Assembly (NCBI GenBank): GCA_964538855.1
Contig: CAZIEY010000001.1
Coordinates: 163,059 to 227,058 of the forward strand
DNA from: an uncultured Candidatus Saccharibacteria bacterium
Lineage (GTDB): Bacteria; Patescibacteriota; Minisyncoccia; Phycocordibacterales; JAACPR01
Direction of reading: 5' to 3'
DNA: 64,000 nt
The notes beneath the pieces are model-generated. The model ran no database searches. It was given only the letters and a program-made list of their open reading frames with translations, and was not told the DNA's origin. A program made the translations under genes and the position numbers. Each line of letters starts with the position of its first letter. Positions within the stretch are counted from its first letter, which is position 1. Of this stretch, positions 12,796-34,700 are shown one piece after another.

Positions 12796-12871
12796 TGCGC
12801 GTGTAGCTCAGTTGGTAGAGCGGTCGACTTATACTCGATTGGTCCCAGGTTCGAGTCCTGGCATGCGCACC
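12796..12871 (+). tRNA. tRNA with anticodon UAU (tRNA-Ile2-type, decoding AUA), CCA encoded
   Basis: 76 nt. Acceptor GCGCGTG/CATGCGC. D-arm GCTC-AGTTGGTA-GAGC. Anticodon stem GTCGA/TCGAT with loop CTTATAC. T-arm CCAGG-TTCGAGT-CCTGG. Followed by ACCA. Confidence 0.75.
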
Positions 12872-12897
12872 AATAAAAGATTTGCTACAATACACAC

Positions 12898-17354: not shown

Positions 17355-17804
17355 ATGACAAACTTGATCGAAAATCGCAAAGCAGGATTCAACTATGAAC
17401 TCGGAGACAAATACGAGGCTGGTATTGAATTGACTGGGCACGAAACGAAATCAATCAAAGCAGGCCGTGGAAATATGACCGGCTCTTTTATTGTGATTCG
17501 TGGTGGCGAGGCGTTTATTTCAGGACTCGAAATTACATCGTTTCAAGCAAACAACTCCCCAATCGATTTCGAACCGCGACGCATGCGCCGGCTGTTGCTC
17601 AAAAAAAGCGATATTTCAAAGCTCCAAATGGCGGAGCAACGCGACCGTTTGACACTCATCCCACTTTCGTTGTATAATAAGGGTAAGTTCGTGAAGCTAT
17701 CCTTTGCGGTAGCTCGCGGAAAAAAGAAGTCCGATAAGCGCGAATCCATTCGCCGCCGCGAAGACAACCGCGACATCGAACGCACCTTGAAATCACGTCG
17801 ATAA
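17355..17804 (+). CDS. smpB: SsrA-binding protein SmpB
   Basis: 149 aa. IENRKA..Y...YEAGIEL.G.E.KS motif family. Lys/Arg-rich C-terminal tail. Adjacent to the tmRNA. Confidence 0.9.
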   Translation: MTNLIENRKAGFNYELGDKYEAGIELTGHETKSIKAGRGNMTGSFIVIRGGEAFISGLEITSFQANNSPIDFEPRRMRRLLLKKSDISKLQMAEQRDRLTLIPLSLYNKGKFVKLSFAVARGKKKSDKRESIRRREDNRDIERTLKSRR

Positions 17805-17825
17805 TATATTCGGTCATTCACTGAA

Positions 17826-17950
17826 AAATATCGAATAAGTCAAAAGACCTGACGCATACTTTTTGAGTCTGGGTCCTCGCTCCAGGCATTGTCGCTGCGG
17901 AGGCCTCAAAAAGCACGCGTCATGTCTTTTATTAAACTTATTCGATATTT
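17826..17950. other. 125-bp nested imperfect palindrome (cruciform-capable hairpin) between smpB and ssrA
   Basis: Outer arms aaatatcgaataagt...acttattcgatattt (15 bp) plus caaaagac/gtctttt. Inner pairs tgacgc/gcgtca, ctttttgag/ctcaaaaag, and ctgg/ccag. Confidence 0.5.
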
Positions 17951-17954
17951 CTCA

Positions 17955-18326
17955 GGGGATGATCGGCTTCGATATACAATCGCCAATATATGTGCAGAAT
18001 AGAGCTCGAGTAACTCTTAAAAAGGCTCGAAACTACAAATGCAAAATCTGTCGTAAGCCCTTACTTTAAGGCAAACAAACTAGCATTCGCGTTCGCGTAA
18101 GCCAACACGACATCCGCGTATCTTACACCTGATACGATAAGGCGGGTGTTACCCCATCAGGTTAGGTGAAGTACACGCTCTTTGTACTTTTCCGAAACTC
18201 AAGGAGATCGGTCGCGCAACATTTCGTTCGCTCTAAGGTGCACGATCCAGAACAAAAAGCGTACTAGATTCTGTAGACTCATATATTGTCCTTGCATACA
18301 CGCGGGTTCGATTCCCGCCATCTCCA
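17955..18326 (+). ncRNA. ssrA: tmRNA (ssrA), one-piece; predicted tag ANKLAFAFA
   Basis: 5' end GGGGATGATCGGCTTCGA resembles the tmRNA 5' consensus. 3' T-arm GCGGG-TTCGATT-CCCGC and acceptor CATCTCC pair with 5' GGGGATG, including a G3-U70 pair. Resume codon GCA at 18071 and TAA at 18098 give the frame GCA AAC AAA CTA GCA TTC GCG TTC GCG. Confidence 0.8.
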
Positions 18327-18379
18327 CATTAAAAAGAAAATCACCCAACATTGGGTGATTTTCTTTTTAATGTGGAGAT
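18320..18379. repeat. Perfect inverted repeat with 29-bp arms and a 2-nt centre, overlapping the last nucleotides of ssrA
   Basis: atctccacattaaaaagaaaatcacccaa-ca-ttgggtgattttctttttaatgtggagat, verified base by base. Confidence 0.85.
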
Positions 18380-18535
18380 AAGAGGAGTAATGCGGAGCAT
18401 TACGACGGGAATCGAAAGCCGGAGCGGGTTACCTGTTTGGAGCGTTAGCGACAAATAGGTCGCGAGGCGGGGTCGCGAACACTTAGATTTTTATGAGCGA
18501 ATGCGAAATAAAAAGCTTAGTGATTTGTGACCGAT
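18372..18535 (+). ncRNA. Candidate structured RNA element, copy 1 (unnamed)
   Basis: Shares conserved blocks with 20139-20313: GTGGAGATAAGA, ACGACGGGAATCGAAAG, GGGGTCGCGAACACTTAGATTTTTATGAGCGAA, GCGAAATAAAAAGCTTAGTGATT.GTGACCGAT. Helix 18387-18403 shows compensatory changes relative to copy 2. Confidence 0.4.
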
Positions 18536-18663
18536 TCAAGACATTTTTCTCCAAAGTGATTCTAAGCTATTGGGATATTACGTAATCATTGACAAACCAC
18601 ACAACATTATGTAATGTACCAAATAGACGATTCATTTCCAACCCCAACCCCGAAGGAACTCTC

Positions 18664-19092
18664 ATGAACGCAACTGCAGATCTCATTCGCGACGACCGCT
18701 GCACCACAGCACTCAAACCGTTAGTCGAAGAGGGTGTCAACCGTCTGAAGACCTTCATCGTCTGCGCAAGCCTGGGCGATTTGAACAATTGGCACCTTCC
18801 CAAAGTCGGTCATGCCACCCTCAACCTAACGGTTCGGGATGGAAATATCGTCGAAGGGACGATTTCCATTCAGGATGGTGAAAACTTCACTGTCAAAGCC
18901 ATAGTCTCGGGACTGACGGGTAACTGCGTGGCGGTGATTGTGAATAAAAGCGAAGGTCCTGTGAAGCTGTATTTGAACATCCCACTCAAGGCTGACAGCA
19001 ACCCAGCTTTGTCAGCACTTTGTGAGATGAGAAAATGCGAGGAGCAGCAGCGAATTGAGAATGTCGCGACCAGGCTCAAAAACCTTCGATAG
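18664..19092 (+). CDS. Hypothetical protein (GC-rich)
   Basis: 142 aa from the ATG after the leader ccaaccccaaccccgaaggaactctc; the ORF opens at 18589. Followed by a terminator. Confidence 0.45.
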   Translation: MNATADLIRDDRCTTALKPLVEEGVNRLKTFIVCASLGDLNNWHLPKVGHATLNLTVRDGNIVEGTISIQDGENFTVKAIVSGLTGNCVAVIVNKSEGPVKLYLNIPLKADSNPALSALCEMRKCEEQQRIENVATRLKNLR

Positions 19093-19149
19093 TGGTAAAC
19101 CCACCCGGTGAAGCAACCGAAGAGTCCGAACCTCTTAAAACTGCCAAAC

Positions 19150-19190
19150 GGCACCTAGCGCTTTTAGCTCCTGGTGCCTTTACTTTTATT
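19150..19190 (+). terminator. Rho-independent terminator
   Basis: ggcacc...ggtgcc stem followed by tttacttttatt. Confidence 0.5.
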
Positions 19191-19198
19191 AACTGTCG

Positions 19199-19330
19199 AT
19201 AGAAGCGCCGGGAATCGAACCAGGAAGGGGTCGGGAAACCTGTGGTTTCCCGTGGAGGAAGGCAGTGAGCGATAGCGAGCGTTGGAAAACCGTGGGTTTC
19301 CAAGTTGATTCAATAGCGAAGCGACCCGCC
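19199..19330. other. GC-rich non-coding segment with two perfect hairpins and a minus-strand tRNA 3'-end-like fragment
   Basis: Hairpins cgggaaacc-tgt-ggtttcccg and ggaaaacc-gtg-ggtttcc. The reverse complement of 19199-19226 reads CCTGG-TTCGATT-CCCGG-CGCTTCT-A (T-arm plus 3' acceptor strand) with no matching 5' acceptor strand. Confidence 0.3.
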
Positions 19331-19377
19331 ATCCCTGCAATTTTAAAAAATCTATCAACATGTAGTATAATTCATTT

Positions 19378-19590
19378 ATGAAAAAGGCTTTTAAAATAAT
19401 ACTCTCGGTGTTGATTATATTTTTACTTTTGTCTGCATTACTAGCTTATCTAGTCTTTAGTGGACATATAGAATGTAATTTCCTAATTACAAACGGGCCT
19501 AGAGTAGAAGATTCGTTTATGTGTCCAATCATCGGTTTTTTGGGGTACATTTGGTATTTCATTTCGCTACCTTTTTCTCCATTCTTTTAG
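19378..19590 (+). CDS. Hypothetical small membrane protein (AT-rich)
   Basis: 70-aa ORF with two hydrophobic segments. Confidence 0.3.
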   Translation: MKKAFKIILSVLIIFLLLSALLAYLVFSGHIECNFLITNGPRVEDSFMCPIIGFLGYIWYFISLPFSPFF

Positions 19591-19809
19591 AATAAGCCTC
19601 TACATCACAAACAAGTCCTGGCCCCATACATTTACCACCTTAAAATAATGGTACAATTATTAGATGAGTAATTATAGAATACATCATTATTTACTAGTAA
19701 TAGTAATCACAATATTAACGATCATCGGTGCCTGGTATTATTTTACTAAAAAAATGTAAGCTGCGCTCGAGACAGCCAAGGTATCAAATCATATATTCTT
19801 AAATCAGAA

Positions 19810-20109
19810 TTGACTGCTTACGAAAATGTAATAAAAAATATCGACGGTAGTCAACATTTTGAAGACTGGAACATATTCCAAAAAATCAAAGATAGCGCGT
19901 CAATTTACGCACAGGACGTAAATAATTGTTACAGTGAACATACTTATCAGATAAAAAAAGGAAATATACTGGTTGAAGTAACCCAAGAGGAATTTCAAGA
20001 TTATTTAATGAGTAGCGCATTTAATAGCAATTTTTGTGAAAGTGCAGTTCAACTTACTAAGTCTGGCCCTAGCCCAGTCTTTATTAAAAATAATTTCTGT
20101 ACAAGATAA
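19810..20109 (+). CDS. Hypothetical protein
   Basis: 99-aa ORF, AT-rich, no motif. Confidence 0.3.
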   Translation: MTAYENVIKNIDGSQHFEDWNIFQKIKDSASIYAQDVNNCYSEHTYQIKKGNILVEVTQEEFQDYLMSSAFNSNFCESAVQLTKSGPSPVFIKNNFCTR

Positions 20110-20138
20110 TACCTTTCTAGTTGGTTCCAAATATTTCT

Positions 20139-20313
20139 GTGGAGATAAGAAGAGGTGCGCGGAGCGTACCGACGGGAATCGAAAGGCGCGGGCGGGGACC
20201 ACTCTGGTCGAGAGTATCGAGACCTGGGGCGCCGAGCCGGGGTCGCGAACACTTAGATTTTTATGAGCGAACGATAGAGAGCGAAATAAAAAGCTTAGTG
20301 ATTCGTGACCGAT
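20139..20313 (+). ncRNA. Candidate structured RNA element, copy 2 (unnamed)
   Basis: Direct, diverged copy (about 70% identity) of 18372-18535. Helix 20154-20170 (ggtgcgc-gga-gcgtacc) covaries with copy 1. Confidence 0.4.
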
Positions 20314-20362
20314 GATTAAAAATCTCTCCTATTTGATTTATACACACGCAAAAACACGCCTC

Positions 20363-20782
20363 TTATTTCACCGGAAATAAATGTTTAACAACTACAAGCA
20401 ACATTGTTGTTATCTGCAAAATAGTTGCAGTAATTAAAGTTCTAAAGTTCCAACTGTCCAAAGAAAAACCCAAATTCTTAAAGCCTTGATAAAAGGTAAT
20501 TGCAAACACTAACCCGGTTTCAACTGCTAAAAATAAAAACAATCTATCTAAAGTATTTCGCTTTAGAGCAATATTTTGTCTTAAATCTTCATTCTCAATT
20601 TCTTTCTTCTCCCGCTCATAGTCTCGTAGTTTATCTGGCACAGACTTACCTGAGCGAGAAAACGAGGATAAATATTTCTTGAAAAATTTGTTATCCGATA
20701 AATCTGAGTTTGATGATGTGATAAAACTCTTAAATAGCGCAATCTGCTCTTCCTGATTATTCTGAGACTTTGTATTTCCCAT
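20363..20782 (-). CDS. Hypothetical membrane protein (cytoplasmic N-domain, C-terminal TM pair)
   Basis: 139-aa ORF, last gene of the 22214-20363 minus-strand operon. Confidence 0.5.
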   Translation of the reverse strand: MGNTKSQNNQEEQIALFKSFITSSNSDLSDNKFFKKYLSSFSRSGKSVPDKLRDYEREKKEIENEDLRQNIALKRNTLDRLFLFLAVETGLVFAITFYQGFKNLGFSLDSWNFRTLITATILQITTMLLVVVKHLFPVK

Positions 20783-20786
20783 AGAT

Positions 20787-21368
20787 TTAACTTTCCAAGA
20801 GTTTTAACCTTTCTAGTCTTATAGACATCGCCAATGGAGAGACATCGAAAATCTCTGCGGTCTCTTCGATGTCCTTCACCTTACCCCACACCTCTCTCAC
20901 TAAATTTTCAGGCATAATTAGCTCGGCAGCAAAATTATTAGCCTCCTTCTCAATCTGACTGCTCTCTTGATCACTTAAACGAAACAACATTTTTGTACTA
21001 TCTAACGAATCCCCTCTGTCAATAATAGCGGATTCTATTTTTAATTTGTCTTGATGTAAAAAATAATGCCCTAATTCGTGAGCTAACGTAAAATGCTGTC
21101 GTGTTTTAGAATCATTTTTATTGATGATAATTGTAAATCTTTGTGCATCCTTCTCAAAAAAGATTACTCCTGATACATTGGACATATCATCAGTAAAATC
21201 GACATATGCAAATTTTAAATCTTGAATTTCACTTTCGATATTTTCATACGGAAAAGGAGACAGGTTTTTTGGATTGTATTTCTGTCTCACTTCTATAGCT
21301 TTAGATATAGCGCGTTCAATTTTTTGATCCATAGTGACAGTATTATATACGATAGGTTGCACACTCAC
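20787..21368 (-). CDS. ImmA/IrrE-family metallo-endopeptidase
   Basis: HELGHYFLH zinc motif and the downstream EANNFAAELIMP motif typical of the ImmA/IrrE (DUF955) family. Confidence 0.8.
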   Translation of the reverse strand: MSVQPIVYNTVTMDQKIERAISKAIEVRQKYNPKNLSPFPYENIESEIQDLKFAYVDFTDDMSNVSGVIFFEKDAQRFTIIINKNDSKTRQHFTLAHELGHYFLHQDKLKIESAIIDRGDSLDSTKMLFRLSDQESSQIEKEANNFAAELIMPENLVREVWGKVKDIEETAEIFDVSPLAMSIRLERLKLLES

Positions 21369-21416
21369 AATAATGCCCGCACAGAGTAACGAAAAATCGT
21401 AATATCTACTCTGAAC

Positions 21417-22214
21417 TTACTCAAGACTGGCTACCCCATCTGTACAAACAAACTTTCCCTCGTCTTTACTAAGCAAAAATGTACTATATATCAAATCTCC
21501 ACATGTTTGATAGTATCTCTTATCGTTAGATACTGTCTTGAATTCATAGTTATCTTTGTTTTTATGTTTTAAATACGAATTACAAACCTTCTGGTCTGCT
21601 TTTTGTAAAAATTTGGAATCACAGTCATTATCTTCAGCATAAATAAGTGCAATTTCGCTAATGCTTATACTTTTTACTTTCTTTTCTGGAATTTTATAAT
21701 CCACAAACATTAAATCCACCAAATCAGAGAGCATCTCTCTACATTTATCACTAGGCGCTTCTCCGCGACACTCTTGATCGTATTTTTTATCTAATTTTAT
21801 ATATTTAGGATTTTTAGAATAATTCAAACCACCTGTATATGTTGAAGGATAAGAAGATGTGTAACTTGGTACATACGTAGGTGTGTAGCTAGGTGTATAT
21901 GTTGGAGTGTAACTTGGAACAGAATACGAATTACTTTCATACAAAGACTTCCCTGTGTAGTAACTTGGATCTGTAATATAAGTTGGAGTATCCCAAGTCG
22001 AGCCTCGAGTACCATACGAACTATTGTATAAACCCTGGCTCGGCTTGTATCCATAATTATCGTACTTCAAACCGTTTGGATTGCTTCTAACATGAGGAGC
22101 AACGTAAGTTCCATTTGATCGATAATACCCTTTAACACTTACATAAGCATCGACATTAAATAACGGTGTAAATGACAATAACAATAAAAATAGACCGATT
22201 AGTAGTTTTTTCAT
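21417..22214 (-). CDS. Secreted Tyr/Ser/Thr/Pro-rich repeat protein with Cys-containing C-terminal domain
   Basis: Signal peptide MKKLLIGLFLLLLSFTPLFNVDA. Tandem PSYTPTYTPSYTPTYVPSYTSSYPSTY repeats (15-bp DNA period at about 21850-21960). Internal Met chosen; the ORF extends to 22313. Confidence 0.6.
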   Translation of the reverse strand: MKKLLIGLFLLLLSFTPLFNVDAYVSVKGYYRSNGTYVAPHVRSNPNGLKYDNYGYKPSQGLYNSSYGTRGSTWDTPTYITDPSYYTGKSLYESNSYSVPSYTPTYTPSYTPTYVPSYTSSYPSTYTGGLNYSKNPKYIKLDKKYDQECRGEAPSDKCREMLSDLVDLMFVDYKIPEKKVKSISISEIALIYAEDNDCDSKFLQKADQKVCNSYLKHKNKDNYEFKTVSNDKRYYQTCGDLIYSTFLLSKDEGKFVCTDGVASLE

Positions 22215-22419
22215 ATAACCCCATCCTACCCCCTTCCAAAAATAAAACAAGCACTCCCTACTCACACCCCACCCCATCACCATCCCTATCCACATCAAAC
22301 ACATCCGCACCAATCACTCGTACCACTCCCGTATAATGAGGTCCGTTACCAGAGCCGCCAGCGCAGTCATATGTCACGTGGTGCCAAGCTATTGAAGGAT
22401 TACGCACCACTTGACATTA

Positions 22420-22448
22420 CTAATATATAAATGTATATTATCAAACGA
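22420..22448 (+). promoter_or_regulatory. Sigma70-like promoter (TTGACA-17-TATATT)
   Basis: -35 at 22420-22425, 17-nt spacer, -10 at 22443-22448, upstream of the 22488 ORF. Confidence 0.45.
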
Positions 22449-22487
22449 CCCCAACCCGTTCTTTACCCACCACATCAGGAGACAGCA

Positions 22488-22763
22488 ATGAAAAACCCCT
22501 CGGAATATTCTGGTCCGTTCATCATCGAAATCTGGAACGAAGCTAAGACGGAACACGTGCCGTCTTCCGCAAGGATTATTGATGGAAATCAGATCAGTGT
22601 CACATCCGGGCGTTTCCACAACTCCTTGGGTGGCATCCAATTCTATTCGGACGGGCAACCCTTCAGCTTTCATGCCTTATATATTCGCAGGATCACCAAT
22701 CCCAGCGGGCAAATTATCTGGAGGAACTGGCATAACAAGGATGAGCCGGTACCCGCCAAATAA
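22488..22763 (+). CDS. Hypothetical protein (GC-rich)
   Basis: 91 aa from the ATG after the RBS caggagacagca. Followed by a strong terminator. Confidence 0.45.
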   Translation: MKNPSEYSGPFIIEIWNEAKTEHVPSSARIIDGNQISVTSGRFHNSLGGIQFYSDGQPFSFHALYIRRITNPSGQIIWRNWHNKDEPVPAK

Positions 22764-22773
22764 CCTCCGCCCA

Positions 22774-22820
22774 CCCCGCTAGTGAACCCCCGTTAGTTCA
22801 CTAGCGGGGTTTCTTTTTAT
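22774..22820 (+). terminator. Rho-independent terminator
   Basis: Perfect 12-bp stem ccgctagtgaac/gttcactagcgg followed by gtttcttttt. Confidence 0.7.
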
Positions 22821-22916
22821 CCTGCCACCTACCTCACACACAATCTTGACTGCGACCCTCACATTGCTATAATACATTTCGTATCCACTCGAAACGTACT
22901 GCATAAGATTCCGTCC

Positions 22917-23426
22917 TTATGTGGTGCGTTTCATTTTATAAGCAAGCTTTTTCTTAAGATCATTCAAAGATTGCAATCTATCATGTGCAGCGAGGCATAA
23001 AATCTTGGCGCAAAAGTTTTTATTAGGACTTACTACCGCCTCAAACTTAGAAACCGAATATAAATACTGGACCAAAGAATAAAAATCACCGTCGTTACTT
23101 ACAATCACCGCGTTTTCATAATCATCGAACTCAAGCATTGCAGTCAAAACCAGATCTGCATCGACATTCCCCTTGCGATGACCTCGTGCATCAAACGTAG
23201 TGGGTTTAAATTTCAAAATAAAACCAGCGTGCTGTAACGTATCATACAAAGACTGATTATTAGGTACAAAACCAATGAATAAGTAAGCTCGTTCAACACC
23301 ATATTTTTCTCTTAAGTACACCCGAAACTTTGCGTAATCCAATTTCCAACCAAGGGACTGAATACCTAAATGTAAGTTCTGACTGTCGATAAAAGCATAA
23401 TTGCGGCGATTAGAAATCACACGCAC
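22917..23426 (-). CDS. NYN-domain (LabA-like) protein
   Basis: AFIDSQNLH, DADLVLTAM, and VIVSNDGDF motifs of the NYN/PIN-like nuclease fold. Confidence 0.75.
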   Translation of the reverse strand: MRVISNRRNYAFIDSQNLHLGIQSLGWKLDYAKFRVYLREKYGVERAYLFIGFVPNNQSLYDTLQHAGFILKFKPTTFDARGHRKGNVDADLVLTAMLEFDDYENAVIVSNDGDFYSLVQYLYSVSKFEAVVSPNKNFCAKILCLAAHDRLQSLNDLKKKLAYKMKRTT

Positions 23427-23793
23427 ATTATACTGACGGGGGTTAAAATATTTTTAAAGAAAGATTAAAGAAATTGTGAGGTTTTTTCTTGTCTTCACTT
23501 GGATAATTACATATAAATAACTTGTGGCATACAATAATCATGATACCCAAAAAAAAATAACAACGAACCAATTATCCATTCTGGAAATATGGAGGAAGAT
23601 TAAAAGAAAAAACACCAACCGAAGTTGATGTGTTTTCGTGTGCCTGGTTACAGTTTTAAAGTGACCGTGAGAGGGTAAATACCCACCAAACACATTTATA
23701 GTATAGCGCGATTTTCATAAAAATCAAGTCCGCGTTTTAACCAATTCCCCCTCCATATTTGCACCACCACCCACCACACGATACTATTACATC

Positions 23794-24282
23794 ATGAACA
23801 TCCAACCACTACGCCCTTGGGAAAAATTATTAGACATTATTCTCATACCAATCATGCGACTCGTTTCCGGTGCACCCGCAGAGGAACCTCAAAGAAGTCA
23901 TGTGTGGAATGTAAAAACTCTCACTCCGCGAGATGTTGAGAACTTAGACAAAAGCCTAATGGTCACAAACAGTGGAATGTCGCGCGGCGTGCAAAGAAGC
24001 AAAATCATACCGAGACATCACATTCCAATTTTTGGCGGATGGAAAAACTATATCGTCATCTCACCCAAAAATCCTGAGGCAGGATGGTTCATTGGCTGGA
24101 ACACACATAAAGTTACCGAACATTCTCGAATCGAATTGAGAACTCCTGTGCGAATGTTAGTTGCTCCCGAACAAGTGCAATTTTTTGCCTTTTCTATATC
24201 CGGAGAGCAAATTCGAATCGAACAAATCGGAGAAGGCGTTGTCGGTGATAAAAGTCAGTATTCGAAATTGCCGTTGTTGTAG
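23794..24282 (+). CDS. Hypothetical protein
   Basis: 162-aa ORF preceded by a C-rich leader (ccccctcc...caccaccacccaccac). Confidence 0.45.
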   Translation: MNIQPLRPWEKLLDIILIPIMRLVSGAPAEEPQRSHVWNVKTLTPRDVENLDKSLMVTNSGMSRGVQRSKIIPRHHIPIFGGWKNYIVISPKNPEAGWFIGWNTHKVTEHSRIELRTPVRMLVAPEQVQFFAFSISGEQIRIEQIGEGVVGDKSQYSKLPLL

Positions 24283-24352
24283 TTACGAACCCGCCCCTAC
24301 CCACATCAAAATTCCATAAAAACCAACCCAAAAATGATAAACTGAAGTAGTT

Positions 24353-24778
24353 ATGGAACCAAACGAAAACAGACCTAAAATCGGTGTAGGAGTAATGATC
24401 TTCAAGGATAATAAAATCCTTTTAGGAAAAAGAAAAGGTTCTCATGGTGCTGGTGAATATACTTGGCCAGGAGGACACATGGAATACATGGAAAGTTTCG
24501 AACAAACAATTCGAAGAGAAACTAAAGAAGAAACAGGACTTGAAATTGAAAACGTAAAATTCTTGCGCCTGCTCAATTTAAAAGCTTACGCCCCAAAACA
24601 TTATGTCGATATTCTGATGACAGCAGATTGGAAAAGTGGTGAGCCAAAAGTATTGGAACCAAACACATGCGAGGGATGGGATTGGTATAATATTAATAAT
24701 CTACCAGAGCCATTATTCAAAGCAGTATATTCTGGTGTTGAAGCACACAAAACAGGTAAGATATTTTTTGACAATTAA
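24353..24778 (+). CDS. NUDIX hydrolase
   Basis: Nudix box GGHMEYMESFEQTIRRETKEETGLEI. Confidence 0.8.
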   Translation: MEPNENRPKIGVGVMIFKDNKILLGKRKGSHGAGEYTWPGGHMEYMESFEQTIRRETKEETGLEIENVKFLRLLNLKAYAPKHYVDILMTADWKSGEPKVLEPNTCEGWDWYNINNLPEPLFKAVYSGVEAHKTGKIFFDN

Positions 24779-24922
24779 ATCTAGTCTGACGAGTAACCTT
24801 ATAATAATGACTACGCTTTTATGAACAAGTATGATATATATAATCTGGATCAGTTTCGAAGAACAGTTTCTTCGAGTCCACAAATGGCCGTAGTGAGCCA
24901 CTACCAAACGGAGTAAATCACG

Positions 24923-25273
24923 ATGAAAAGTCTGAGCATCAACCACTCGAAAGACCTGCTTCTGCGGTTGAGTTTAGATGGCGCCAGTGTCGGGGCGAAA
25001 AAAATGCACACGTTCATCTCCGCATTGTGGTTTGGACTAATGATAGATACAAATGCAAAAACGAGCATCCCCGATATTGATACGATCTTGCGCAAGGAGC
25101 TCTTTAACCTCAGAGGCCGCCATCGTGTAACGATCGGACTCTCTATTCACGTCCAAAATCCGGGACATGATGGATGGATTAGAGTAAATCTCTGTGGCTA
25201 TGTAAAAAACTCTGGAGGTCCTGTCTATCGCAACAATGTTCTATTCAAAATCGACACTGGAGAAATAAAATAA
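24923..25273 (+). CDS. Hypothetical protein
   Basis: 116-aa ORF, no motif. Confidence 0.35.
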   Translation: MKSLSINHSKDLLLRLSLDGASVGAKKMHTFISALWFGLMIDTNAKTSIPDIDTILRKELFNLRGRHRVTIGLSIHVQNPGHDGWIRVNLCGYVKNSGGPVYRNNVLFKIDTGEIK

Positions 25274-25341
25274 GAATCTAAGCCCACCAACCGCAACACG
25301 GAAGAAACCCATCCGTCGCGAGATAGGTGGGTTTTTTCTTT

Positions 25342-27132
25342 TTAACGAAACTCCACTTCCTCCCCCTTATGACTCAACACGAATTCCTCCCACGATTTTT
25401 TGAATTCGGCGTCGCGTGCGAGCAGCTCATTAAACGAACCTTGATTGCGAATCGCGCCCTTGTCCAAAATCACAATGCGATCAAAATATTTGAGCAAGTT
25501 CATTTTATGAATTGATGCAATAATTGTGGCATCGCGAAAATTCTCGAAAATGTGTTTGTAAATTTTCACTTCGTTAACAGGATCAACTGAGCTGGTCGAT
25601 TCGTCGAGCAACATGATTTTCTTGTCCTTCGAGAACAACAACGCACGCGTTAACGCGAGACGTTGTTTCTGCCCTCCTGATAAATTCACACCTTTTTCAT
25701 TCACCACCGATTCGATTTTACGTGGTAATTGCTCAATCACATCAGTAAACATCGCAGCATCAGATGCACGGCGAATTTCCTCGTCGGTGAAGTCGAGCAA
25801 AAGTGTGATGTTTTCGCGAATACTTGCAGAAAAAACTTCGGGTTCCTGTGGCACCAATGTTGATTCCAAATCGAGGTCCGCAAAATTTGTTGTGATTGGT
25901 GTCGCACCGTCGATTGAAACCTTGGCAGAAGCCATTTCATACATACCGTGCAATATCTTCAACAATGTCGATTTACCAGAACCACTTTCCCCGATGAAGG
26001 CGATTTTTTCGCCGCGCTGTAATGCGAAATTAAAATCAACAAATTCTTTACGCACGCCAGTCGTGTCATAGGCAAAATTCAAATTAGAGATTGAAAGCGT
26101 ATTCCAATTTTCAATATGTCGCTTGTATGCACGTATATTTTTATCAAATGCAGCTTCGATAGGTTCAACGTTTTGCAGACGTGCTTTGTCCATGATCAAA
26201 TCGGCATACATATGCGTAAACGTATAATACACACCTATCAAGTTAGATAAATACAAATAAAGTGTGCTCAATGTACCAATCAATACAGTCCCTGTCGTGT
26301 GATATTGATTCCATACATAATATGCGAGAGGTACCGAGACAATACACGCAAATAATATTCCGCCAAGTGCCCATTTGGCCTCGATCCACTGATATTTGAT
26401 TTTAAAATTACCGAATGAAGCCCAGCTCGATTTCATGATGCTCTGTAAAATAGAAGATTCGATACCCAATACTTTCACTGTGGTGACATTTGAAAGACCA
26501 TCAAACACCTTCGCTGAAGCCTTATTTTCTAGTTCATTAATAATTTTATACTGCGGAATAATCTTCTTATCAAAACAAAAAATAATGAAAAGTGATAACG
26601 CCAACAATACTATCGCAATAGCGCCCACCGTCACATCAAAATACATGAGTGCGATTGTCGTACCGATTGCACGCACCCACACATACAAAAATGTAGATAC
26701 GTTACCTGCTGCTTGCGACAATGCTTCTGTTGATTTATTTACTTTGTCGATAGTATCTCCCGAATCGTGATCAGTGTGCCATGAAAGTGGTAAAGATAAT
26801 ACACCTTGGTATAAAAACTTTTTATAATTTCTATCGATACGAAATTGATTGTACATTTCAAGCAACGCACCAGGTGCACCAACGGCGCGCGCAATCAATT
26901 CAACAAAAACAGAACTTGCAATCAACAGGAAAATGAATGGCATGTTTTGCAAACCATTCACTTGGATTTCATTAATGAGCATTCCAAACGTCACAGGTGT
27001 AACTAACCACATTGCCTGGTTAATCAAAATAAGCACCGCAGACGCAATGAATTGAGGTTTAAACGCGCCAATAAAGCGCCAGATTTTACGTAGCAAAAAT
27101 ATCGTTGGCTCCTTTTTGAGAATAGAAAACAT
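25342..27132 (-). CDS. ABC exporter, fused permease/ATP-binding protein
   Basis: 596 aa. Six TM segments in the N-terminal half. Walker A GESGSGKST, signature LSGGQKQRLALTRAL, Walker B IMLLDEST. Confidence 0.9.
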   Translation of the reverse strand: MFSILKKEPTIFLLRKIWRFIGAFKPQFIASAVLILINQAMWLVTPVTFGMLINEIQVNGLQNMPFIFLLIASSVFVELIARAVGAPGALLEMYNQFRIDRNYKKFLYQGVLSLPLSWHTDHDSGDTIDKVNKSTEALSQAAGNVSTFLYVWVRAIGTTIALMYFDVTVGAIAIVLLALSLFIIFCFDKKIIPQYKIINELENKASAKVFDGLSNVTTVKVLGIESSILQSIMKSSWASFGNFKIKYQWIEAKWALGGILFACIVSVPLAYYVWNQYHTTGTVLIGTLSTLYLYLSNLIGVYYTFTHMYADLIMDKARLQNVEPIEAAFDKNIRAYKRHIENWNTLSISNLNFAYDTTGVRKEFVDFNFALQRGEKIAFIGESGSGKSTLLKILHGMYEMASAKVSIDGATPITTNFADLDLESTLVPQEPEVFSASIRENITLLLDFTDEEIRRASDAAMFTDVIEQLPRKIESVVNEKGVNLSGGQKQRLALTRALLFSKDKKIMLLDESTSSVDPVNEVKIYKHIFENFRDATIIASIHKMNLLKYFDRIVILDKGAIRNQGSFNELLARDAEFKKSWEEFVLSHKGEEVEFR

Positions 27133-27163
27133 TATGTAATCCTATCATAAGACCTCACAAAAA

Positions 27164-27778
27164 TCAGGCGCGGGGACGACGCAACCACGCATACCAGACA
27201 GCAACCACTGCTCCGAGCGTATTAAAAACTAAATCAAGCGACGTGTTCACATACCCACCTACCCCATTTCCTGGGAATAATAATGTCGCAATAAATTCGA
27301 CAATCTCGTTAATAACACCAAGTCCCATACCCGCAAGCACTGCAATGATGTACACACCGACCTTATTTCTATCTGGCTGATAGCGACGTAAAAAGTGCAG
27401 CATAGTACGCGCCGCGAGACCAAAACCAAATGCATGCACAACCTGATCATACTTCAACAAAATCATCTCACCACCACCGTTATAAAGCGGGATTAATTGC
27501 ACACCATACAAAACTGTTCCACCGACTTTGACACTTCCCCCTGCAAGATGGAGCAATGCCCACACCGATAATCCCCACACGACACCGCGCGACAATTGCG
27601 ACTTTGGCAAAGTTCCGATCACAAGTACAATCAGTAAAATCACCACCGCGATATACCAAATAAATTCACCGTTGTCCTGCAACAAAAAATACGCAGTGAA
27701 AGGAACGAGATACGCGAGCGTAAACACGACAAGCCATTTGTAATCCCTGAGTGATTGGACAAAACTTTTCATGAGCAC
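27164..27778 (-). CDS. Conserved multi-pass membrane protein (paralog of 37934-38377)
   Basis: 204 aa. Shared motif pattern VINEIVEF...SLDLVFNTLGAVVA versus LAWEVWELF...ILDIIMDTLGGIAA. Confidence 0.5.
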   Translation of the reverse strand: MLMKSFVQSLRDYKWLVVFTLAYLVPFTAYFLLQDNGEFIWYIAVVILLIVLVIGTLPKSQLSRGVVWGLSVWALLHLAGGSVKVGGTVLYGVQLIPLYNGGGEMILLKYDQVVHAFGFGLAARTMLHFLRRYQPDRNKVGVYIIAVLAGMGLGVINEIVEFIATLLFPGNGVGGYVNTSLDLVFNTLGAVVAVWYAWLRRPRA

Positions 27779-27781
27779 ATC

Positions 27782-28045
27782 TTAGCACAAATACCCCTCT
27801 TGTTTCAAAATCTTTTTCTTTTCCTCTGCCCCGCGATTGTACTGACCGAGCTTCCCATCCGACCGAATCACACGATGACATGGCACGTCGGGGCGATAAT
27901 TTTTCGATAAAATCGTTCCGACGGCACGAACCGCACGCGGTGAACCAACACAACGTGCCACTTCTGCGTACGTGAATACCGAGCCACGCGGGATTTGTGC
28001 GACCACTGCAAGGACCTTTTCAGTAAATTGGTTTTTGTTATTCAT
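27782..28045 (-). CDS. MGMT-family protein (methylated-DNA-protein-cysteine methyltransferase DNA-binding domain only)
   Basis: 87 aa with the PCHRVI active-site motif and a helix-turn-wing. Confidence 0.75.
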   Translation of the reverse strand: MNNKNQFTEKVLAVVAQIPRGSVFTYAEVARCVGSPRAVRAVGTILSKNYRPDVPCHRVIRSDGKLGQYNRGAEEKKKILKQEGYLC

Positions 28046-28129
28046 ATTGACTTTTATTCACAATACAATAATATTGTGCAGGCTCTTGTTCATTTCGTCA
28101 AATCACACCCCTAACTCAAGGAGAAGTGC

Positions 28130-28403
28130 CGTGCCAAAACCAAAGCAGAAATTAGCACAACTGCAACTGAAAGTAGTGCGTCCGATTAACGCCACAAACA
28201 TTCAAACGAACACGCATGTGTCGCTACGCCCTGGAACATACATCGTTGAGTATATTGAACGCGCATGGGAGCCAGGAAGCATACGAACATGGATTGTTGA
28301 TACCAAAACTCAAATTGGAGTTCTTCTGGAACAGCTCAAACACGAACGCAATGCGACGCTATATGAAAATGGAGTAAGCATCAAGAAAAAGAAGAAGTCA
28401 TAA
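28130..28403 (+). CDS. Hypothetical protein (GTG start after AAGGAG)
   Basis: The ORF opens at 27972 but overlaps the MGMT gene. GTG at 28130 has an RBS 7 nt upstream. About 91 aa, Lys-rich tail. Confidence 0.4.
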
Positions 28404-28423
28404 TTTCAACCACTACTATCCAC

Positions 28424-28450
28424 ACGCACCCAATGTTGTTGGGTGCGTGT
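28424..28450. terminator. Hairpin terminator between convergent genes
   Basis: Perfect 11-bp stem cacgcacccaa/ttgggtgcgtg with loop tgttg. Confidence 0.5.
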
Positions 28451-28451
28451 C

Positions 28452-30284
28452 TCACTTATTCTTCATTAATCGTTCTAACTCAGCAATATCTGCTTCGATT
28501 TGAGCGAGGCCTTCTTCAAAAAATTTCGGGTGACGCACGTCGATGCCGACTGACGCAAAAATATCCTCGGGACTCGCACTGCCACCTGCTGACAAAAATT
28601 GTTCAATTTTTGCTCTATACGTAGCATCTTTTTTATACTTTGCAAATAATGCATCGCTCACTAATTCCCCGAACGCATACGAGTACACATAGAAATGTTT
28701 CCGAATATGTGACCAACCCACGAAAAAATACCCATCCTCTGGTTTGATTTTGAATACAGGACCGAGATATGCCGACATATGTTTGTTCATTAACTGTGCT
28801 AAATCTTCTTTTGATGCAAAACCTTTTGATCGCACCAACATGTGTGCATCATGTTCAAAATTGAAACACGCAATTTGACGAAACACAGAACTTATCTTTC
28901 CAGAAATTTTATCATGAAGTGCAATGATTTTTTCTGCTTCAGATAAACGACCGAACGCCTCTTCAAATACAAGATTCTCAAAAAACGTACTCGCCACTTC
29001 AGCAACAGCAATTGTATAATCATTGTACAGCGGTCTCTGAGCCTTTGAAAGTTCGCTATGAAAGGCATGTCCCATTTCGTGTCCGAATGTCATCACTGAA
29101 TTGAAATTGTTCGCGTGATTAAGCAACACAAAATTCGGGATATTGTATGCACCCCAACAATATGCTCCACCTCTTTTACCCTTTTTCGCAAACACATCAA
29201 TTTGACCATTTAATAGATACGAATTCAAAATCTTCACGTATTTTTTATCAAATGGCGCAAATGCTTTTTGCAAAATATCGACAGCATCTGCAAATAGAAA
29301 CGGTGTTTTTGTGTCTCCAATTTCAGCACCACGATCTGCATATTCCAAATATTTCTCCTTCATCATACGCGCCTTAAGTTTAAAAAAACGATGTGAAATT
29401 GGAAAATGTTTCGTCACCACTGACACAAGTGTATCGACGGTCGCTTCCTCATTTTGATACGACATCACAGTGTTTGAATACGGTTTTTTGAAACCACGCA
29501 ATTCATCAATGACATTTTTTCGATAGAACAACGCATTGATTTCTGCCTCCGCAAAATCCGATATCTCAATCATCTTTTGCATCAACATATTCCACATCAT
29601 ACGACGCTCTGTGATGGGTAAGCTATAATATCGTCCAAAAGCTTCGGTGACAGGCATCAACACCCCTTTCCACATTATTTCCTGCTTATTTAAAACTTTT
29701 TGAAGCCCGTCGATCCACATTTCTCGAGCTGGCTGATTGAGGCGAGTCAAGATCTTTTCTTCCGCCTCCGACAAATCGTGTTGAGCAGTGTTCCAAATTA
29801 CATGTAGAAAGTAACTGTACGGCGCAAGCACTTTCTCTTTTCTAAACTTCTGTTGAATTGCCACGGAAATACGGCCGATATCCAACGTAAAAAATATAAA
29901 CCTATTCAAAATTTTGTCATAGCGATTTTCTATATCGGTCATACGAGCACGAATAGTAGTGTCACCATGATTTGTATCTCGCCGGAAATAAAAATAAATA
30001 CGAGGACGAATACAACCAGGGTGTGAAATTAAAATCTCGTAATCTTTACAGGCGCTCGCAAGCGTTTTTGCAGTTGTAAGCCATTTCTTATTTATGCTGT
30101 ATTTTCTCTCGAATACTGCAACAGCTAACTCGAAATCTGCAACATCGCGCATAATCTGAGGATCATTATCACCTTTATATATAAGCCCTAAATTCCATTC
30201 AGTTTGCATGCGTGGCTGTTTCGGGATGCGAGGTTGTGATGCGTTGTTTTTCATGGGTTTTATCATAGCAAGTGGCTTTATCAA
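28452..30284 (-). CDS. pepF: Oligoendopeptidase F (M3B family)
   Basis: 610 aa with the HEMGHAFHS zinc motif and a downstream E. Confidence 0.85.
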   Translation of the reverse strand: MIKPLAMIKPMKNNASQPRIPKQPRMQTEWNLGLIYKGDNDPQIMRDVADFELAVAVFERKYSINKKWLTTAKTLASACKDYEILISHPGCIRPRIYFYFRRDTNHGDTTIRARMTDIENRYDKILNRFIFFTLDIGRISVAIQQKFRKEKVLAPYSYFLHVIWNTAQHDLSEAEEKILTRLNQPAREMWIDGLQKVLNKQEIMWKGVLMPVTEAFGRYYSLPITERRMMWNMLMQKMIEISDFAEAEINALFYRKNVIDELRGFKKPYSNTVMSYQNEEATVDTLVSVVTKHFPISHRFFKLKARMMKEKYLEYADRGAEIGDTKTPFLFADAVDILQKAFAPFDKKYVKILNSYLLNGQIDVFAKKGKRGGAYCWGAYNIPNFVLLNHANNFNSVMTFGHEMGHAFHSELSKAQRPLYNDYTIAVAEVASTFFENLVFEEAFGRLSEAEKIIALHDKISGKISSVFRQIACFNFEHDAHMLVRSKGFASKEDLAQLMNKHMSAYLGPVFKIKPEDGYFFVGWSHIRKHFYVYSYAFGELVSDALFAKYKKDATYRAKIEQFLSAGGSASPEDIFASVGIDVRHPKFFEEGLAQIEADIAELERLMKNK

Positions 30285-30421
30285 AATCCATCCTTAGAAC
30301 TTCTTTACAAAGATCTCAACCCGATAGAACATCATAATTCCTCGTGCAGGCAAATATACACTGATGTGTTCAGGCATACAGCAGCACCCCCGCAGACTCC
30401 CACAGAGTCTGCGGTTCTTTT

Positions 30422-31408
30422 TTATTCTCCTAACACATTCCACACCCGCGGATCACCCTGTCCCAAAGCCCATGCAGACATTCCCCGTAAACCGCGATCT
30501 TCCACTATTTTCTGCTTCAGCTCAATACTGTCGATATTGTCGCACCAAATTTTCATCTCGGCTTTCCCTTGTATAAAGCTAAAAAACTCCGCGCCGAGAG
30601 CTTTATCAAATCCAGTTTCGCGATCCGCACCCTTCTTATAATTTTTCTTGGCAAGATAATAGGTAGTCGCTCCCATGCGCACACCGTTCTGCCACTGCCA
30701 ACAATACATCGGAATTCCGAGTGACATTTTTTCAGCAGGCACCAGTTTCACCAAATAATCGAGGGCCGCGTTCACATACGGCAAAGACGCAACGGGACCA
30801 ACTGATCGCGGATCATCGTATGTCATAAGCGACAAAAAATCGACATGAGATGCGAGGTTTTTATAGTCATACGCACTCGACCAATCCTGATATGCTGAAT
30901 TTGGGTTGTAGTCGTTGTTACGCACAATCACTGCCACACTAAATTGCAAATTATTTTTCTTCATCTCAGCGCCAGCCTTTGCCACGAACGCGGTGTACAA
31001 ATTTCGATCACGATGGTTGATATTTTCAAAATCAAATTGCCAACCAATGTATTTATACTTTTTTGCTTCATCAAGCATAAAATCAATGATCGAGTCTTGA
31101 ACCTCCGGAGAGGTGAGAATCTTTGTCATGAGAGCCCGATCGAAATTGTCTTGCACCAGAAGAGGCATAGTTGGCACGCGTTTTTTCTCGATTTCGCGAT
31201 GAATTTTTTTTGAAACGTTCATCGTAATCTTGAAATCGGGTCCGACTTCATATATTTGCGGAGCAAAGATCCCGATATCTTTTGCATGTTTCTTAAATTC
31301 TTTGAGTCCGTCTTTATTACTGTAGAAATAAAATAAATTTTCAGCACCCACGGTCAAAGGCATAGTCACAAAAGTAATCGCGAGAAGGATTGCAGTAATG
31401 CGTTTCAT
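30422..31408 (-). CDS. Secreted glycoside hydrolase family 18-like protein
   Basis: Signal peptide. A (beta/alpha)8-like layout with IGWQFDFENI, a variant of the GH18 DxxDxDxE catalytic motif. Confidence 0.5.
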   Translation of the reverse strand: MKRITAILLAITFVTMPLTVGAENLFYFYSNKDGLKEFKKHAKDIGIFAPQIYEVGPDFKITMNVSKKIHREIEKKRVPTMPLLVQDNFDRALMTKILTSPEVQDSIIDFMLDEAKKYKYIGWQFDFENINHRDRNLYTAFVAKAGAEMKKNNLQFSVAVIVRNNDYNPNSAYQDWSSAYDYKNLASHVDFLSLMTYDDPRSVGPVASLPYVNAALDYLVKLVPAEKMSLGIPMYCWQWQNGVRMGATTYYLAKKNYKKGADRETGFDKALGAEFFSFIQGKAEMKIWCDNIDSIELKQKIVEDRGLRGMSAWALGQGDPRVWNVLGE

Positions 31409-31424
31409 ATATTACCATTCTAAC

Positions 31425-32369: not shown

Positions 32370-32806
32370 ATTTTGCCCGCTAGAAATTCTTTGGATGCGT
32401 CGACTAAAAAATTACTCGAAAGCACCACTCGACCGATTAAAACAGGATTGTGCATATTTGTGCGATTGTTCAAACCGATTTTTATATGCATTTCGCGTGA
32501 ACCAATCACAAGCGGTGTCCTGATAATGTAACGTGGTGATGTTACCCCATTCGCATCGCGAACCCGCTTTTTTGTGTAATCAGGCGTCTCATGAACAGTG
32601 TCTTTATATTCTGGGTGCGAAGTATCTAAAAGTGAAAATTGGAGGAACTTTTTTCCGTCGCGCTCGACTTCACCAATGATATCAGCATGAATGCATCCGT
32701 TATATGCACCGGAATCAATTTTTGCAACCACGTTACGTATATTAAACTGAGGGAATGAAACATATTCCCGACGTCCAACCATCATTTTGAGATCTGCTTT
32801 TTCCAT
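32366..32806 (-). CDS. Retropepsin-like putative protease (DUF785, RimK-associated)
   Basis: 146 aa with the VAKIDSGAY motif (Asp-Ser-Gly of the acid-protease fold). Immediately downstream of a RimK-like ligase. Confidence 0.6.
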   Translation of the reverse strand: MEKADLKMMVGRREYVSFPQFNIRNVVAKIDSGAYNGCIHADIIGEVERDGKKFLQFSLLDTSHPEYKDTVHETPDYTKKRVRDANGVTSPRYIIRTPLVIGSREMHIKIGLNNRTNMHNPVLIGRVVLSSNFLVDASKEFLAGKI

Positions 32807-32810
32807 CTTT

Positions 32811-34644: not shown

Positions 34645-34700
34645 AAAAGGCCTGAAGCGCGATGCGTGTGTTTGTGTCCACGCATCGCAACCTCAGAGCC

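Follow-up and report, generated by a model that had tools for sequence, protein, structure and literature searches.

What is the element that stands, twice, near the transfer-messenger RNA (tmRNA) gene of an uncultured Candidatus Saccharibacteria bacterium: an RNA gene, a miniature inverted-repeat transposable element (MITE), the scar of a genomic island, or something else? The question is raised by a stretch of 64,000 nucleotides (nt) of its DNA (GenBank assembly GCA_964538855.1, contig CAZIEY010000001.1, positions 163,059 to 227,058), referred to here as the window. The element lies on the + strand as copy 1 (E1; 18371-18535) and copy 2 (E2; 20138-20313). An earlier inspection of the letters alone, termed below the sequence-only reading, favoured a functional structured RNA for copy 2. 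The analysis described here gives an even chance to a different answer: that copy 2 forms the right-hand, structured module of a short piece of DNA inserted site-specifically into the T-loop of the tmRNA gene, and that the module acts as single-stranded DNA. No description of the element was found in the literature searched, and the family is apparently undescribed so far.

The two copies in the window

Copies 1 and 2 are direct repeats spaced 1767-1778 nt apart, in which 20138-20207 corresponds to 18371-18440, 20233-20271 to 18463-18501 and 20281-20313 to 18503-18535. Identical cores of 33 nt and 23 nt each occur exactly twice in the window, where none is expected by chance. A covariance model built from relatives, R1, has only two matches there, 18404-18544 (114 bits) and 20171-20322 (104.5 bits). 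The sequence-only reading had already seen a second copy about 1.77 kb downstream in the same orientation, with boundaries (20139-20329) essentially equal to the present ones. Its remark that copy 2 is longer in the middle segment and in the loop of the AT hairpin agrees with the alignment, and the structure-preserving substitutions that it described are now matched by strong covariation at the family level, with the + strand as the folding strand. What it missed is the tmRNA gene directly upstream of copy 1.

This gene, ssrA (17955-18329, + strand), was found by ARAGORN and is a full-length match to Rfam RF00023 (96.6 bits). Its last 22 nt (18307-18328), TTCGATTCCCGCCATCTCCACA, constitute segment T, which occurs once in the window and is the presumed insertion target. 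A perfect terminator palindrome of 29 bp (18320-18379; inverted repeat I1, 100% complementary, assigned to neither strand) overlaps the gene end. The left arm includes the 3′ strand of the tmRNA acceptor, and the right arm terminates in TGTGGAGAT. Copy 1 starts within this right arm, directly behind the tmRNA gene and its terminator.

Both copies open with TGTGGAGAT ... CGGGAATCGAA, the reverse complement of the tmRNA 3′ end (TTCGATTCCCG-CC-ATCTCCACA) split by a small hairpin, P0. In copy 1, an acceptor complement (18371-18379), P0 (18387-18403) and a T-arm complement (18406-18416) are followed by a core that forms a three-way junction and runs to the right end ...GTGACCGAT at 18535. In copy 2, the acceptor complement TGTGGAGAT (20138-20146; reverse complement of the tmRNA end ATCTCCACA, with two sites only in the window) precedes P0 (20154-20170) and the T-arm complement CGGGAATCGAA (20173-20183), which complements the tmRNA T-loop and T-stem. 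P2 (20185-20238), defined by alignment A2 and pair counts, has a GGC/GCC stem, a CGNAG/CGAG internal loop and a variable GC-rich hairpin. P3 (20241-20310) is a long irregular hairpin seen in the folds, the alignment and model R1; it pairs GGTCGCGAA with TTCGTGACC, includes a conserved G.T and, besides the CACT/AGTG pairing, has one bulged A and one T.T mismatch; its AT-rich tip is variable. The conserved right-end 20-mer, CTTAGTGATTCGTGACCGAT, is at 20294-20313. In the P2 loop of copy 2 (20189-20191; column 21 of A2), G replaces the A of CGSAG that is kept in at least 90% of the family, a possible sign that a displaced copy 2 is decaying.

The + strand of both copies folds better than shuffled sequences (z = -6.0 for copy 1 and -3.6 for copy 2), and the - strand folds less well. 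With DNA energy parameters copy 2 still folds (z = -3.3). The P0 hairpins differ by compensatory changes, GTAATGC-GGA-GCATTAC in copy 1 and GGTGCGC-GGA-GCGTACC in copy 2. The P0 assignment in copy 2 draws on the folds, on these changes and on triloop statistics given below.

Copy 2 also lies beside genes of the opposite strand. Three minus-strand open reading frames (ORFs), 20363-20782, 20787-21368 (Peptidase_M78) and 21417-22313, end just to its right, the stop codon of the first being 50 nt away; the sequence-only reading had likewise placed it at the 3′ end of minus-strand genes. This position would suit a 3′ end signal of the genes at 22313-20363, or else a leader of a + strand gene. We find such a local role scarcely credible: it is the + strand that folds, not the - strand; the terminator scan is negative at copy 2; no credible + strand gene follows, as had also been recognized before; and the family is tied to tRNA genes, not to one neighbouring gene.

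Relatives and their distribution

A scan of metagenomes with a two-block pattern gave nine true hits. Wherever upstream DNA was present, a tmRNA gene preceded the element at a distance of 50-80 nt, with one exception (locus L019; individual loci are given L numbers). Genomes were then scanned with the 3′ strand of P3, TTAGTGATTYGTGACCGAT, which is common to all the metagenome hits though it had not been selected for. Seventy-four loci were obtained, all with titles of Patescibacteria or of unclassified metagenome-assembled genomes (Paceibacteria groups, Minisyncoccia and many Saccharibacteria), and several genomes gave two or three contigs. One of the 74, L092, is a chance match within a coding region.

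According to ARAGORN, the gene immediately upstream of nearly all elements, and on their strand, is that of a tRNA (at least 14 isoacceptor types) or of a tmRNA. Model R1 finds about 110 elements in 81 loci; 77 are behind a gene, about 11 are in tandem after another element and most others are at contig edges. Among 130 tRNA and tmRNA genes, those in the fetched loci with at least 300 nt of downstream sequence, 77 carry an R1 element that starts within 160 nt downstream on the same strand, including 19/19 tmRNA genes; these frequencies are biased upward, each locus having been picked for at least one element.

About 24 of the remaining 65 genes have the same arrangement of terminator, tRNA-end complement, P0 and T-arm complement joined to different cores. 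At least three or four other core types stand behind tRNA-Ser, Asp, Arg and Gly genes (L025, L083, L047, L086, L055, L022; L094 3647-3836), with sequences such as ...CGAAGCCCRATTGAGC... and ...CGAAGCTGTTG... that are outside the coverage of R1. As these different cores share one 5′ module, the elements and the other core types constitute a superfamily.

Known RNA families do not account for the element. A scan of the window against Rfam 15 at gathering thresholds recovered only the tmRNA and two tRNAs, and eight relatives' loci likewise gave tmRNA and tRNA only. E-value scans of 18300-20400 and of L029 2650-3000 gave only generic hairpin (miRNA-model) matches on the terminator palindrome. ARAGORN and Rfam detect no tRNA or tmRNA on either strand of 18371-18535 or 20138-20313; the only shared sequence is the 11-nt T-arm complement. 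Because the copies open with a complement of the tmRNA end, a - strand tRNA- or tmRNA-like gene (reading TTCGATTCCCG...ATCTCCACA) was considered. It was rejected on these negative results and on the G.U pairs and fold energy, which favour the + strand.

Target-derived flanks

The order at a locus is a complete gene, which closes with segment T (T-loop to 3′ end), then a terminator palindrome, the segment T′, the core and the segment T*. The element is 130-180 bases long and lies directly behind the gene. T′ is the reverse complement of T, and in about half of the loci the P0 hairpin of about 25 nt splits it into acceptor and T-arm complements. Thereafter come AATCGAA-RG, P2 with its variable hairpin flanked by CGNAG and CGAG, then GG and P3. 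In the family, P3 reads GGTCGCGAA/TTYGTGACC and likewise has the bulged A, the CACT/AGTG pairing, one T.T mismatch and a tip that varies. The core ends in ...CTTAGTGATTYGTGACCGA; the boundary is GA|T, and beyond it T* is a direct copy of T from position 59 on.

The flanks follow the individual gene. Across its T-arm part, T′ departs from a full complement of the neighbouring gene's own T-loop and T-stem at 0.9 of 12 positions on average, and it tracks even an aberrant T-loop, as in tRNA-Met, where TGCAATT is mirrored by AATTGCA. In many loci the complementarity of T′ to the target is perfect over 21 nt. T* is identical at 18/18 positions in about 20/63 loci; elsewhere it is partial, having decayed from its 3′ side. 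It matches the gene, not the CCA-ended mature tRNA. A terminator follows T* in 12/85 loci as compared with 16/430 random windows, about four times as commonly. The ends are TGTGGAGAT... and ...GTGACCGAT in both window copies and are tRNA-specific in relatives. In the window, a T* remnant is found behind a possible third module, 'mid' (p about 0.01); the trace behind E1 is weak, and behind copy 2 no T* is recognizable in the T* test, although in relatives it begins after ...CGA.

These flanks bear on two familiar classes of element. The T/T* direct duplication (17-20 nt) and the T′/T* inverted repeats correspond formally to the target duplications and termini of a MITE, but both are copies of the target gene. 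In the sequence-only reading, many scattered copies with random substitution were to indicate a MITE; many copies do exist, but they occupy one type of site and their substitutions preserve structure. Like an att site of a genomic island, the family has a direct repeat of the gene 3′ end at the far boundary. The sequence-only reading had set aside att-type repeats, an idea that now proves largely right, given T-derived flanks on every member as well as tandem and cargo arrays.

Two further candidates were rejected on the same anatomy. Interruption of the tmRNA T-loop by a group I intron or another intervening sequence does not fit, as the upstream gene is complete (model positions 1-374) and T* decays. 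A retroviral-type primer-binding site or origin of reverse transcription was suggested by the start of T* at position 59; T′ however runs seamlessly into the genomic terminator palindrome, T* resembles the gene and not a CCA-ended tRNA, and an old terminator follows T*.

A conserved fold, and the case for RNA

Alignment A2 comprises 54 cores. RNAalifold predicts from it P2, an extension of P2, and P3, and 11 of the 21 predicted pairs are changed on both sides. In a 34-pair structure that includes P1, formed by T′ and T*, 91.8% of cells hold standard pairs; sliding the partners lowers this to 31-40%. Covariation scores 0.362 (0.05-0.08 in the slid controls), a value reached by 0/500 shuffles, and 17/34 pairs are changed on both sides. 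The pair at columns 93/162 is G.U (G.T in DNA) in 51/54 sequences, and GC alternates with GU at columns 95/160. The search pattern fixed the 3′ strand of the P3 base (TTAGTGATTYGTGACCGAT), where covariation is consequently not assessable. The consensus fold is a three-way junction of P1, P2 and P3, plus P0; P3 contains the bulged A and mismatches. The fold is under selection, and on the + strand, because covariation exceeds that of the controls and the G.U features are strand-specific.

The hairpin tips were also counted. C(GNA)G triloops number 30 against 4.5 expected, and GNRA tetraloops 7 against 10.5 expected. The triloop GCGGAGC is found in both window copies, forming the P0 tip of copy 2, and GCGAAGC in L005 and L014. 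The sequence d(GCGNAGC) is the classic extra-stable mini-hairpin of DNA, whose exceptional stability was reportedly shown in work of Hirao and colleagues.

A selected fold is what one would expect of a functional non-coding RNA (ncRNA) tied to tRNA and tmRNA units, expressed by read-through or from an unrecognized promoter, with a role in maturation, sensing or quality control. In such an RNA, T′ and T* could form a minihelix resembling an acceptor and T-stem (P1) and P0 could stand in for the central arms, giving a tRNA-like shape with a greatly expanded T-loop. Besides the strong covariation, the + strand G.U pairs, the purine-rich internal loops and the three-way junction, this explanation can draw on the much better fold of the + strand, on the very high occupancy of tRNA genes (and 19/19 tmRNA genes) in reduced genomes and on neighbours that are housekeeping genes, not genes of mobile elements. 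It has to contend with an intrinsic terminator that always lies between gene and element, with the lack of a promoter-like site, with a T* that P1 needs but that is decayed in about two-thirds of loci and absent at copy 2, with tips that are C(GNA)G rather than GNRA or UNCG, and with the lack of an Rfam match. Tandem arrays, cargo insertions and the solitary right ends of L020, L050 and L091, described below, would be unexpected as well. We consider such an RNA possible rather than probable. Hence the functional RNA of the sequence-only reading survives as a selected intrastrand fold; as a free-standing RNA gene it is unsupported and, on balance, disfavoured, in view of the terminator, the missing promoter and Rfam match and the C(GNA)G tips.

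A folded DNA site is moderately favoured over an RNA gene because a terminator precedes the module, no promoter-like site was found upstream of copy 1 or copy 2, the tips are C(GNA)G and the fold persists with DNA parameters. A strong terminator separates gene and element in the family loci; copy 2 itself has none to its left. In the window a terminator scan of the relevant strand finds none at either copy, the true terminator being the separate palindrome at 18320-18379.

A different kind of RNA would be the guide or scaffold RNA of an RNA-guided mobile element, in the style of the omega-RNA of TnpB/IscB or the bridge RNA of IS110, with the core as scaffold and T* or T′ as guide. A structured core of about 130 nt does abut an 18-nt target-derived segment at its right end, as a right-end omega-RNA does, T′ is in many loci a perfect 21-nt complement of the target, and the T-loop motif TTCGAT resembles short target motifs or those like a target-adjacent motif (TAM). 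This explanation is improbable nonetheless. No tnpB, iscB, IS110 or tnpA-like ORF is present in or near any element; no such family occurs among 150 neighbouring ORFs, and the Rfam HEARO and IS605-orfB motifs are unmatched. The target T is duplicated here, whereas IS200/IS605 elements insert without duplication, and the terminator and promoter pose the same problem as for other RNAs. As for catalytic RNAs, hammerhead and other small ribozymes were rejected because, by eye, the joining strands of the three-way junction do not fit.

Arrays and cargo

In four loci (L026, L031, L057, L076) elements are arrayed in tandem in the order E - T* - terminator - T′ - E, where E is the element. Such arrays are the outcome expected if a segment [T(59-end) - terminator - T′ - core] were inserted repeatedly into the T-loop of the functional gene. 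In about 90% of units (49/56) a terminator alone lies between T and T′. Others carry cargo: L050 has four direct copies of T with a TrmB-like gene and other ORFs between them, DNA methylase genes are upstream of the module in L045 and L019, and L020 has a GIY-YIG ORF. In L020 (5240-5530), this 88-amino-acid (aa) GIY-YIG-type ORF and two 120-nt direct repeats replace the core between the tmRNA gene and the right-end 20-mer with T*. Solitary right ends, consisting of the right-end 20-mer and T* only, are found in L020, L050, L091 and at a second site in L008. As they keep this block and T* alone, the right-end 20-mer may be the minimal cis element.

Three units can be read behind ssrA in the window. 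The first is [T 18307-18329 - terminator - T′ - P0 - E1 ... 18535]. The second comprises a weak T*, the orphan cargo ORF142 (18664-19092, + strand, 142 aa, no Pfam hit) and 'mid' (19196-19325). The third starts with the T* remnant CCCGCCATC-CC (19325-19336), followed by ORF70 (19378-19590; 70 aa) and ORF99 (19810-20109; 99 aa), both + strand entries of the ORF list without a Pfam hit, and then by T′ at 20138, P0 and E2 to 20313. Copy 2 thus closes the outermost, presumably oldest, unit, with ORF70 and ORF99 as its cargo.

The 'mid' region, extending on the + strand over 19196-19340 (repeat family D4), is a degenerate or variant module of uncertain membership. Its layout is CGCCGGGAATCGAA at the 5′ side, GGGGTCG...CGACC and then the T* remnant, which has an alignment score of 19 (null p about 0.01); it carries a T-arm complement of the tmRNA type (GCCGGGAATCGAA). 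A hybrid of the 5′ part of 'mid' and an R1 right end is seen at L008 1534-1631. ORF142 has one distant homologue (P0002, 62% identity), which in L094/L095 is found behind tRNA-Leu(CAA) with its own module. The 60 nt after ORF142 (19093-19154) are conserved at L094 4520-4584 and resemble a tRNA 3′ half, GAAGAG(G)TTCAAGTCCTCTTAAAAC, with a T-arm and an acceptor-like tail; they may be another target-derived fragment of a cargo unit.

Comparison with close relatives concerns the history of copy 2. In the closest relative, L018 (94-97% identical), E1 is shared and homology is lost at 18538, which puts the onset of variable DNA at the 3′ end of the module. In L005, L008 and L014, whose flanks are 80-83% identical, an element of the copy-2 type lies beside the tmRNA gene and shares 90-92% identity with copy 2. 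On these figures copy 2 seems to have been exchanged or displaced and not locally duplicated.

Direct repeats of the tmRNA end with variable cargo DNA beyond them, at a gene end that is a classical integration site of islands, invite another view: ordinary, decaying attL/attR scars or integrase arm regions of islands at ssrA, with incidental structure. Arm-type sites would leave unexplained why three helices show compensatory changes in two classes of Patescibacteria, and why Saccharibacteria and Paceibacteria have near-invariant blocks of 20-35 nt in common. About 90% of units hold a terminator only, and there is no adjacent integrase. Plain att scars, which the covariation contradicts, thus appear quite improbable.

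A model of insertion as folded DNA

The insertion model builds on direct observations: how the elements are organized, their association with tRNA and tmRNA genes, their covariation and arrays, and the way T, T′ and T* relate. We infer from them that the unit is mobile, that its substrate would be single-stranded DNA, and what kind of enzyme would act on it. Insertion would take place in the T-loop at position 58|59, and serially. From left to right the unit would consist of T, serving as a replacement 3′ end from position 59, a terminator or cargo genes, T′ (often split by P0) and the P2/P3 core ending in ...CTTAGTGATTYGTGACCGA. The original 3′ end would be displaced to T* behind the unit, where it would then decay. 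The module would work as folded single-stranded DNA in which T′-T pairing rebuilds a duplex copy of the target. In a circularized unit ...GTGACCGA would be joined to T(59-end), and T-T′ pairing would close a target-like stem; the irregular, conserved P3 would stack on the T/T′ duplex beside the crossover point. The fold would be recognized by a recombinase encoded elsewhere in the genome. In topology this would resemble a cassette of an integron together with its attC site, or the attP(+) hairpin of the CTX phage. The model would explain why T′ co-varies with the gene and why the newest unit adjoins it. It would also explain why the first position is held by terminator-only units, since the tRNA 3′ end would be spoiled by a first unit that lacked a terminator.

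Several points weigh against insertion as folded DNA. No recombinase or transposase was detected by Pfam among 150 ORFs flanking elements in the 74 loci, and none, including Phage_integrase, among the window ORFs scanned, which lay outside 48-64 kb. Scans of viral contigs and blastn searches of phage and plasmid collections gave no match, no autonomous phage or plasmid carrying the element was identified, and no free or circular form was found; nor did close relatives provide a pair of empty and filled sites. Copy 2 has lost its T* and has no terminator or T to its left, and its placement in unit 3 rests on the T* remnant behind 'mid', itself a weak family member that R1 does not find and whose fold is no better than that of shuffled sequences. 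Each unit would need T and T′ matching its own tRNA, and the colonization of more than 14 tRNA types has no explanation under the model; gene conversion of cores between loci is our guess at a route. The purine-rich internal loops (CGNAG/CGAG), the conserved G.U and the three-way junction also suit RNA. Finally, streamlined genomes in which 60-80% of tRNA genes are occupied could point to a host function rather than a selfish one.

The elements contain no integrase gene; the cargo consists of methylases, regulators or orphan ORFs, or is lacking. UPF0102 (YraN-like predicted nuclease) ORFs occur within about 1 kb of an element in 6/150 neighbouring ORFs (74 loci, A3), a recurrence that probably reflects synteny with particular tRNA genes.

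Other features of the locus

The locus is anchored by smpB (17355-17804, + strand; Pfam SmpB, E = 5e-46). Between smpB and ssrA, at 17810-17965, is a hairpin of about 155 nt with nested inverted repeats (17811-17840/17936-17965 and 17842-17867/17905-17930; fold z = -9.15). The 3′ arm reaches into the start of the tmRNA gene, overlapping its first bases, so that the gene sits in long palindromes at both ends. The inner part of the hairpin is kept in L005, L008 and L014; L013 has no room for it.

A few kilobases upstream of smpB-ssrA lies a tRNA-Ile gene with the anticodon TAT (UAU) at 12797-12872, an anticodon that is unusual in bacteria. The synteny is conserved and is seen also in L013, L020, L053, L057 and L062. 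None of four tRNA-Ile(TAT) genes is followed by the element (0/4), and in the window neither the Ser-GCU nor the Ile-UAU tRNA gene carries one.

In L013 the gene infC follows ssrA by 1.7 kb, and in the window it is at 35375, with about 17 kb of extra DNA. This DNA (18330-35375) encodes Peptidase_M78, NYN, NUDIX, ABC-transporter, M3 peptidase, GH18 and rhodanese proteins and two RimK-like proteins, and is possibly a large variable region anchored at ssrA. The NYN-domain ORF (22917-23426) is missing in L008 (3181-3185) from a stretch that is otherwise syntenic, an insertion or deletion of about 380 nt; its flanks, 22839-22973 and 23356-23492, match L008 3051-3317.

The contigs of L001 and L002 stop at window position 18327, and L096 (1765 nt) runs precisely from E1 to E2. 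Breaks in short-read assemblies of this same organism coincide exactly with the palindrome of the tmRNA end and with both copies; the repeats fragment assemblies of the candidate phyla radiation (CPR).

Relation to known systems

Among the closest known systems is the attC site of integrons, which the element loosely resembles. There too each unit ends, on its 3′ side, in a structured module of 100-180 nt that conserves its fold more than its sequence, and the module ends are pairing inverted repeats (R″/R′ in attC, T′/T* here). Crossover is inside the 3′ repeat, so that the linear unit starts with the tail of the repeat and ends with the rest of the site. As in integrons, new units enter at one fixed site where arrays grow, the cargo ORFs are small, share one orientation and are mostly orphans, and one strand folds. 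The element differs in having no RYYYAAC/GTTRRRY boxes at its ends and in forming a three-way junction with P0 instead of a single long bulged hairpin. Entry is at a tRNA or tmRNA T-loop and not at an attI next to intI, no integrase was found, the pairing ends copy the target gene and vary among tRNAs, and about 90% of units are terminator-only.

The attP(+) site of the CTX phage, which uses Xer, is similar in that an inverted target-like pair folds in single-stranded DNA to a duplex copy of the target, in a forked hairpin of about 150 nt. The element, in contrast, has no dif-like sequence and no phage genome, its target is a tRNA T-loop, and the integrated form keeps both arms side by side.

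Islands and prophages in tRNA and tmRNA genes, with a sublocation in the T-loop, are said to have been described by K. Williams in 2002. Like these, the element would be inserted into the 3′ part of the gene and supply a replacement end; the displaced end persists as a direct repeat, and tandem arrays occur. It differs in its units of about 200 nt rather than kilobases, its lack of an integrase gene, its inverted target copy and its covarying core.

MITEs, repetitive extragenic palindrome doublets forming hairpins (REPINs) and palindromes derived from IS200/IS605 share with the element the short length, the absence of ORFs, the many copies per genome, the hairpins and a presumed dependence on an enzyme in trans. 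Unlike them, it is tied to the 3′ ends of tRNA and tmRNA genes, has one orientation and target-copy flanks and regenerates the gene end; and in contrast to MITE-type repeats, we know of no matching transposase for it. With tRNA-linked ncRNAs (3′ external transcribed spacers, the tRNA-like domain of tmRNA and Y-RNA-like mimics) it has in common a position next to tRNA genes and a possible P1 resembling an acceptor and T-stem, but it lies behind a terminator, its P1 is usually decayed and it has no Rfam match.

Significance

The family may, we suggest tentatively, represent an integron-like gene-capture and insertion system of Patescibacteria that has so far gone unrecognized. Units would enter at the T-loop of tRNA and tmRNA genes and carry folded single-strand sites with a built-in T′, and nucleic-acid pairing, not just recognition of DNA by protein, would set the choice of target. 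Terminator-only cassettes of about 200 nt would be the commonest form, and cargo units such as that of copy 2 would be rare gene cassettes.

A large part of bacterial diversity belongs to the Patescibacteria (the CPR), whose genomes of about 1 Mb have little spare DNA. A conserved and covarying element of 130-200 nt behind most tRNA genes and every tmRNA gene examined would amount to roughly 0.5-1% of a CPR genome. On the practical side, assemblies break at the repeats, and T* fragments can mislead the annotation of tRNAs and islands. As an RNA, the element would be a new and very abundant class connected with the biology of tRNA and tmRNA. As a recombination site, it would represent a new way to insert DNA at tRNA genes without harm, and possibly an integration system directed by pairing; it would also mark hot spots for the entry of orphan and defence-type genes into these genomes.

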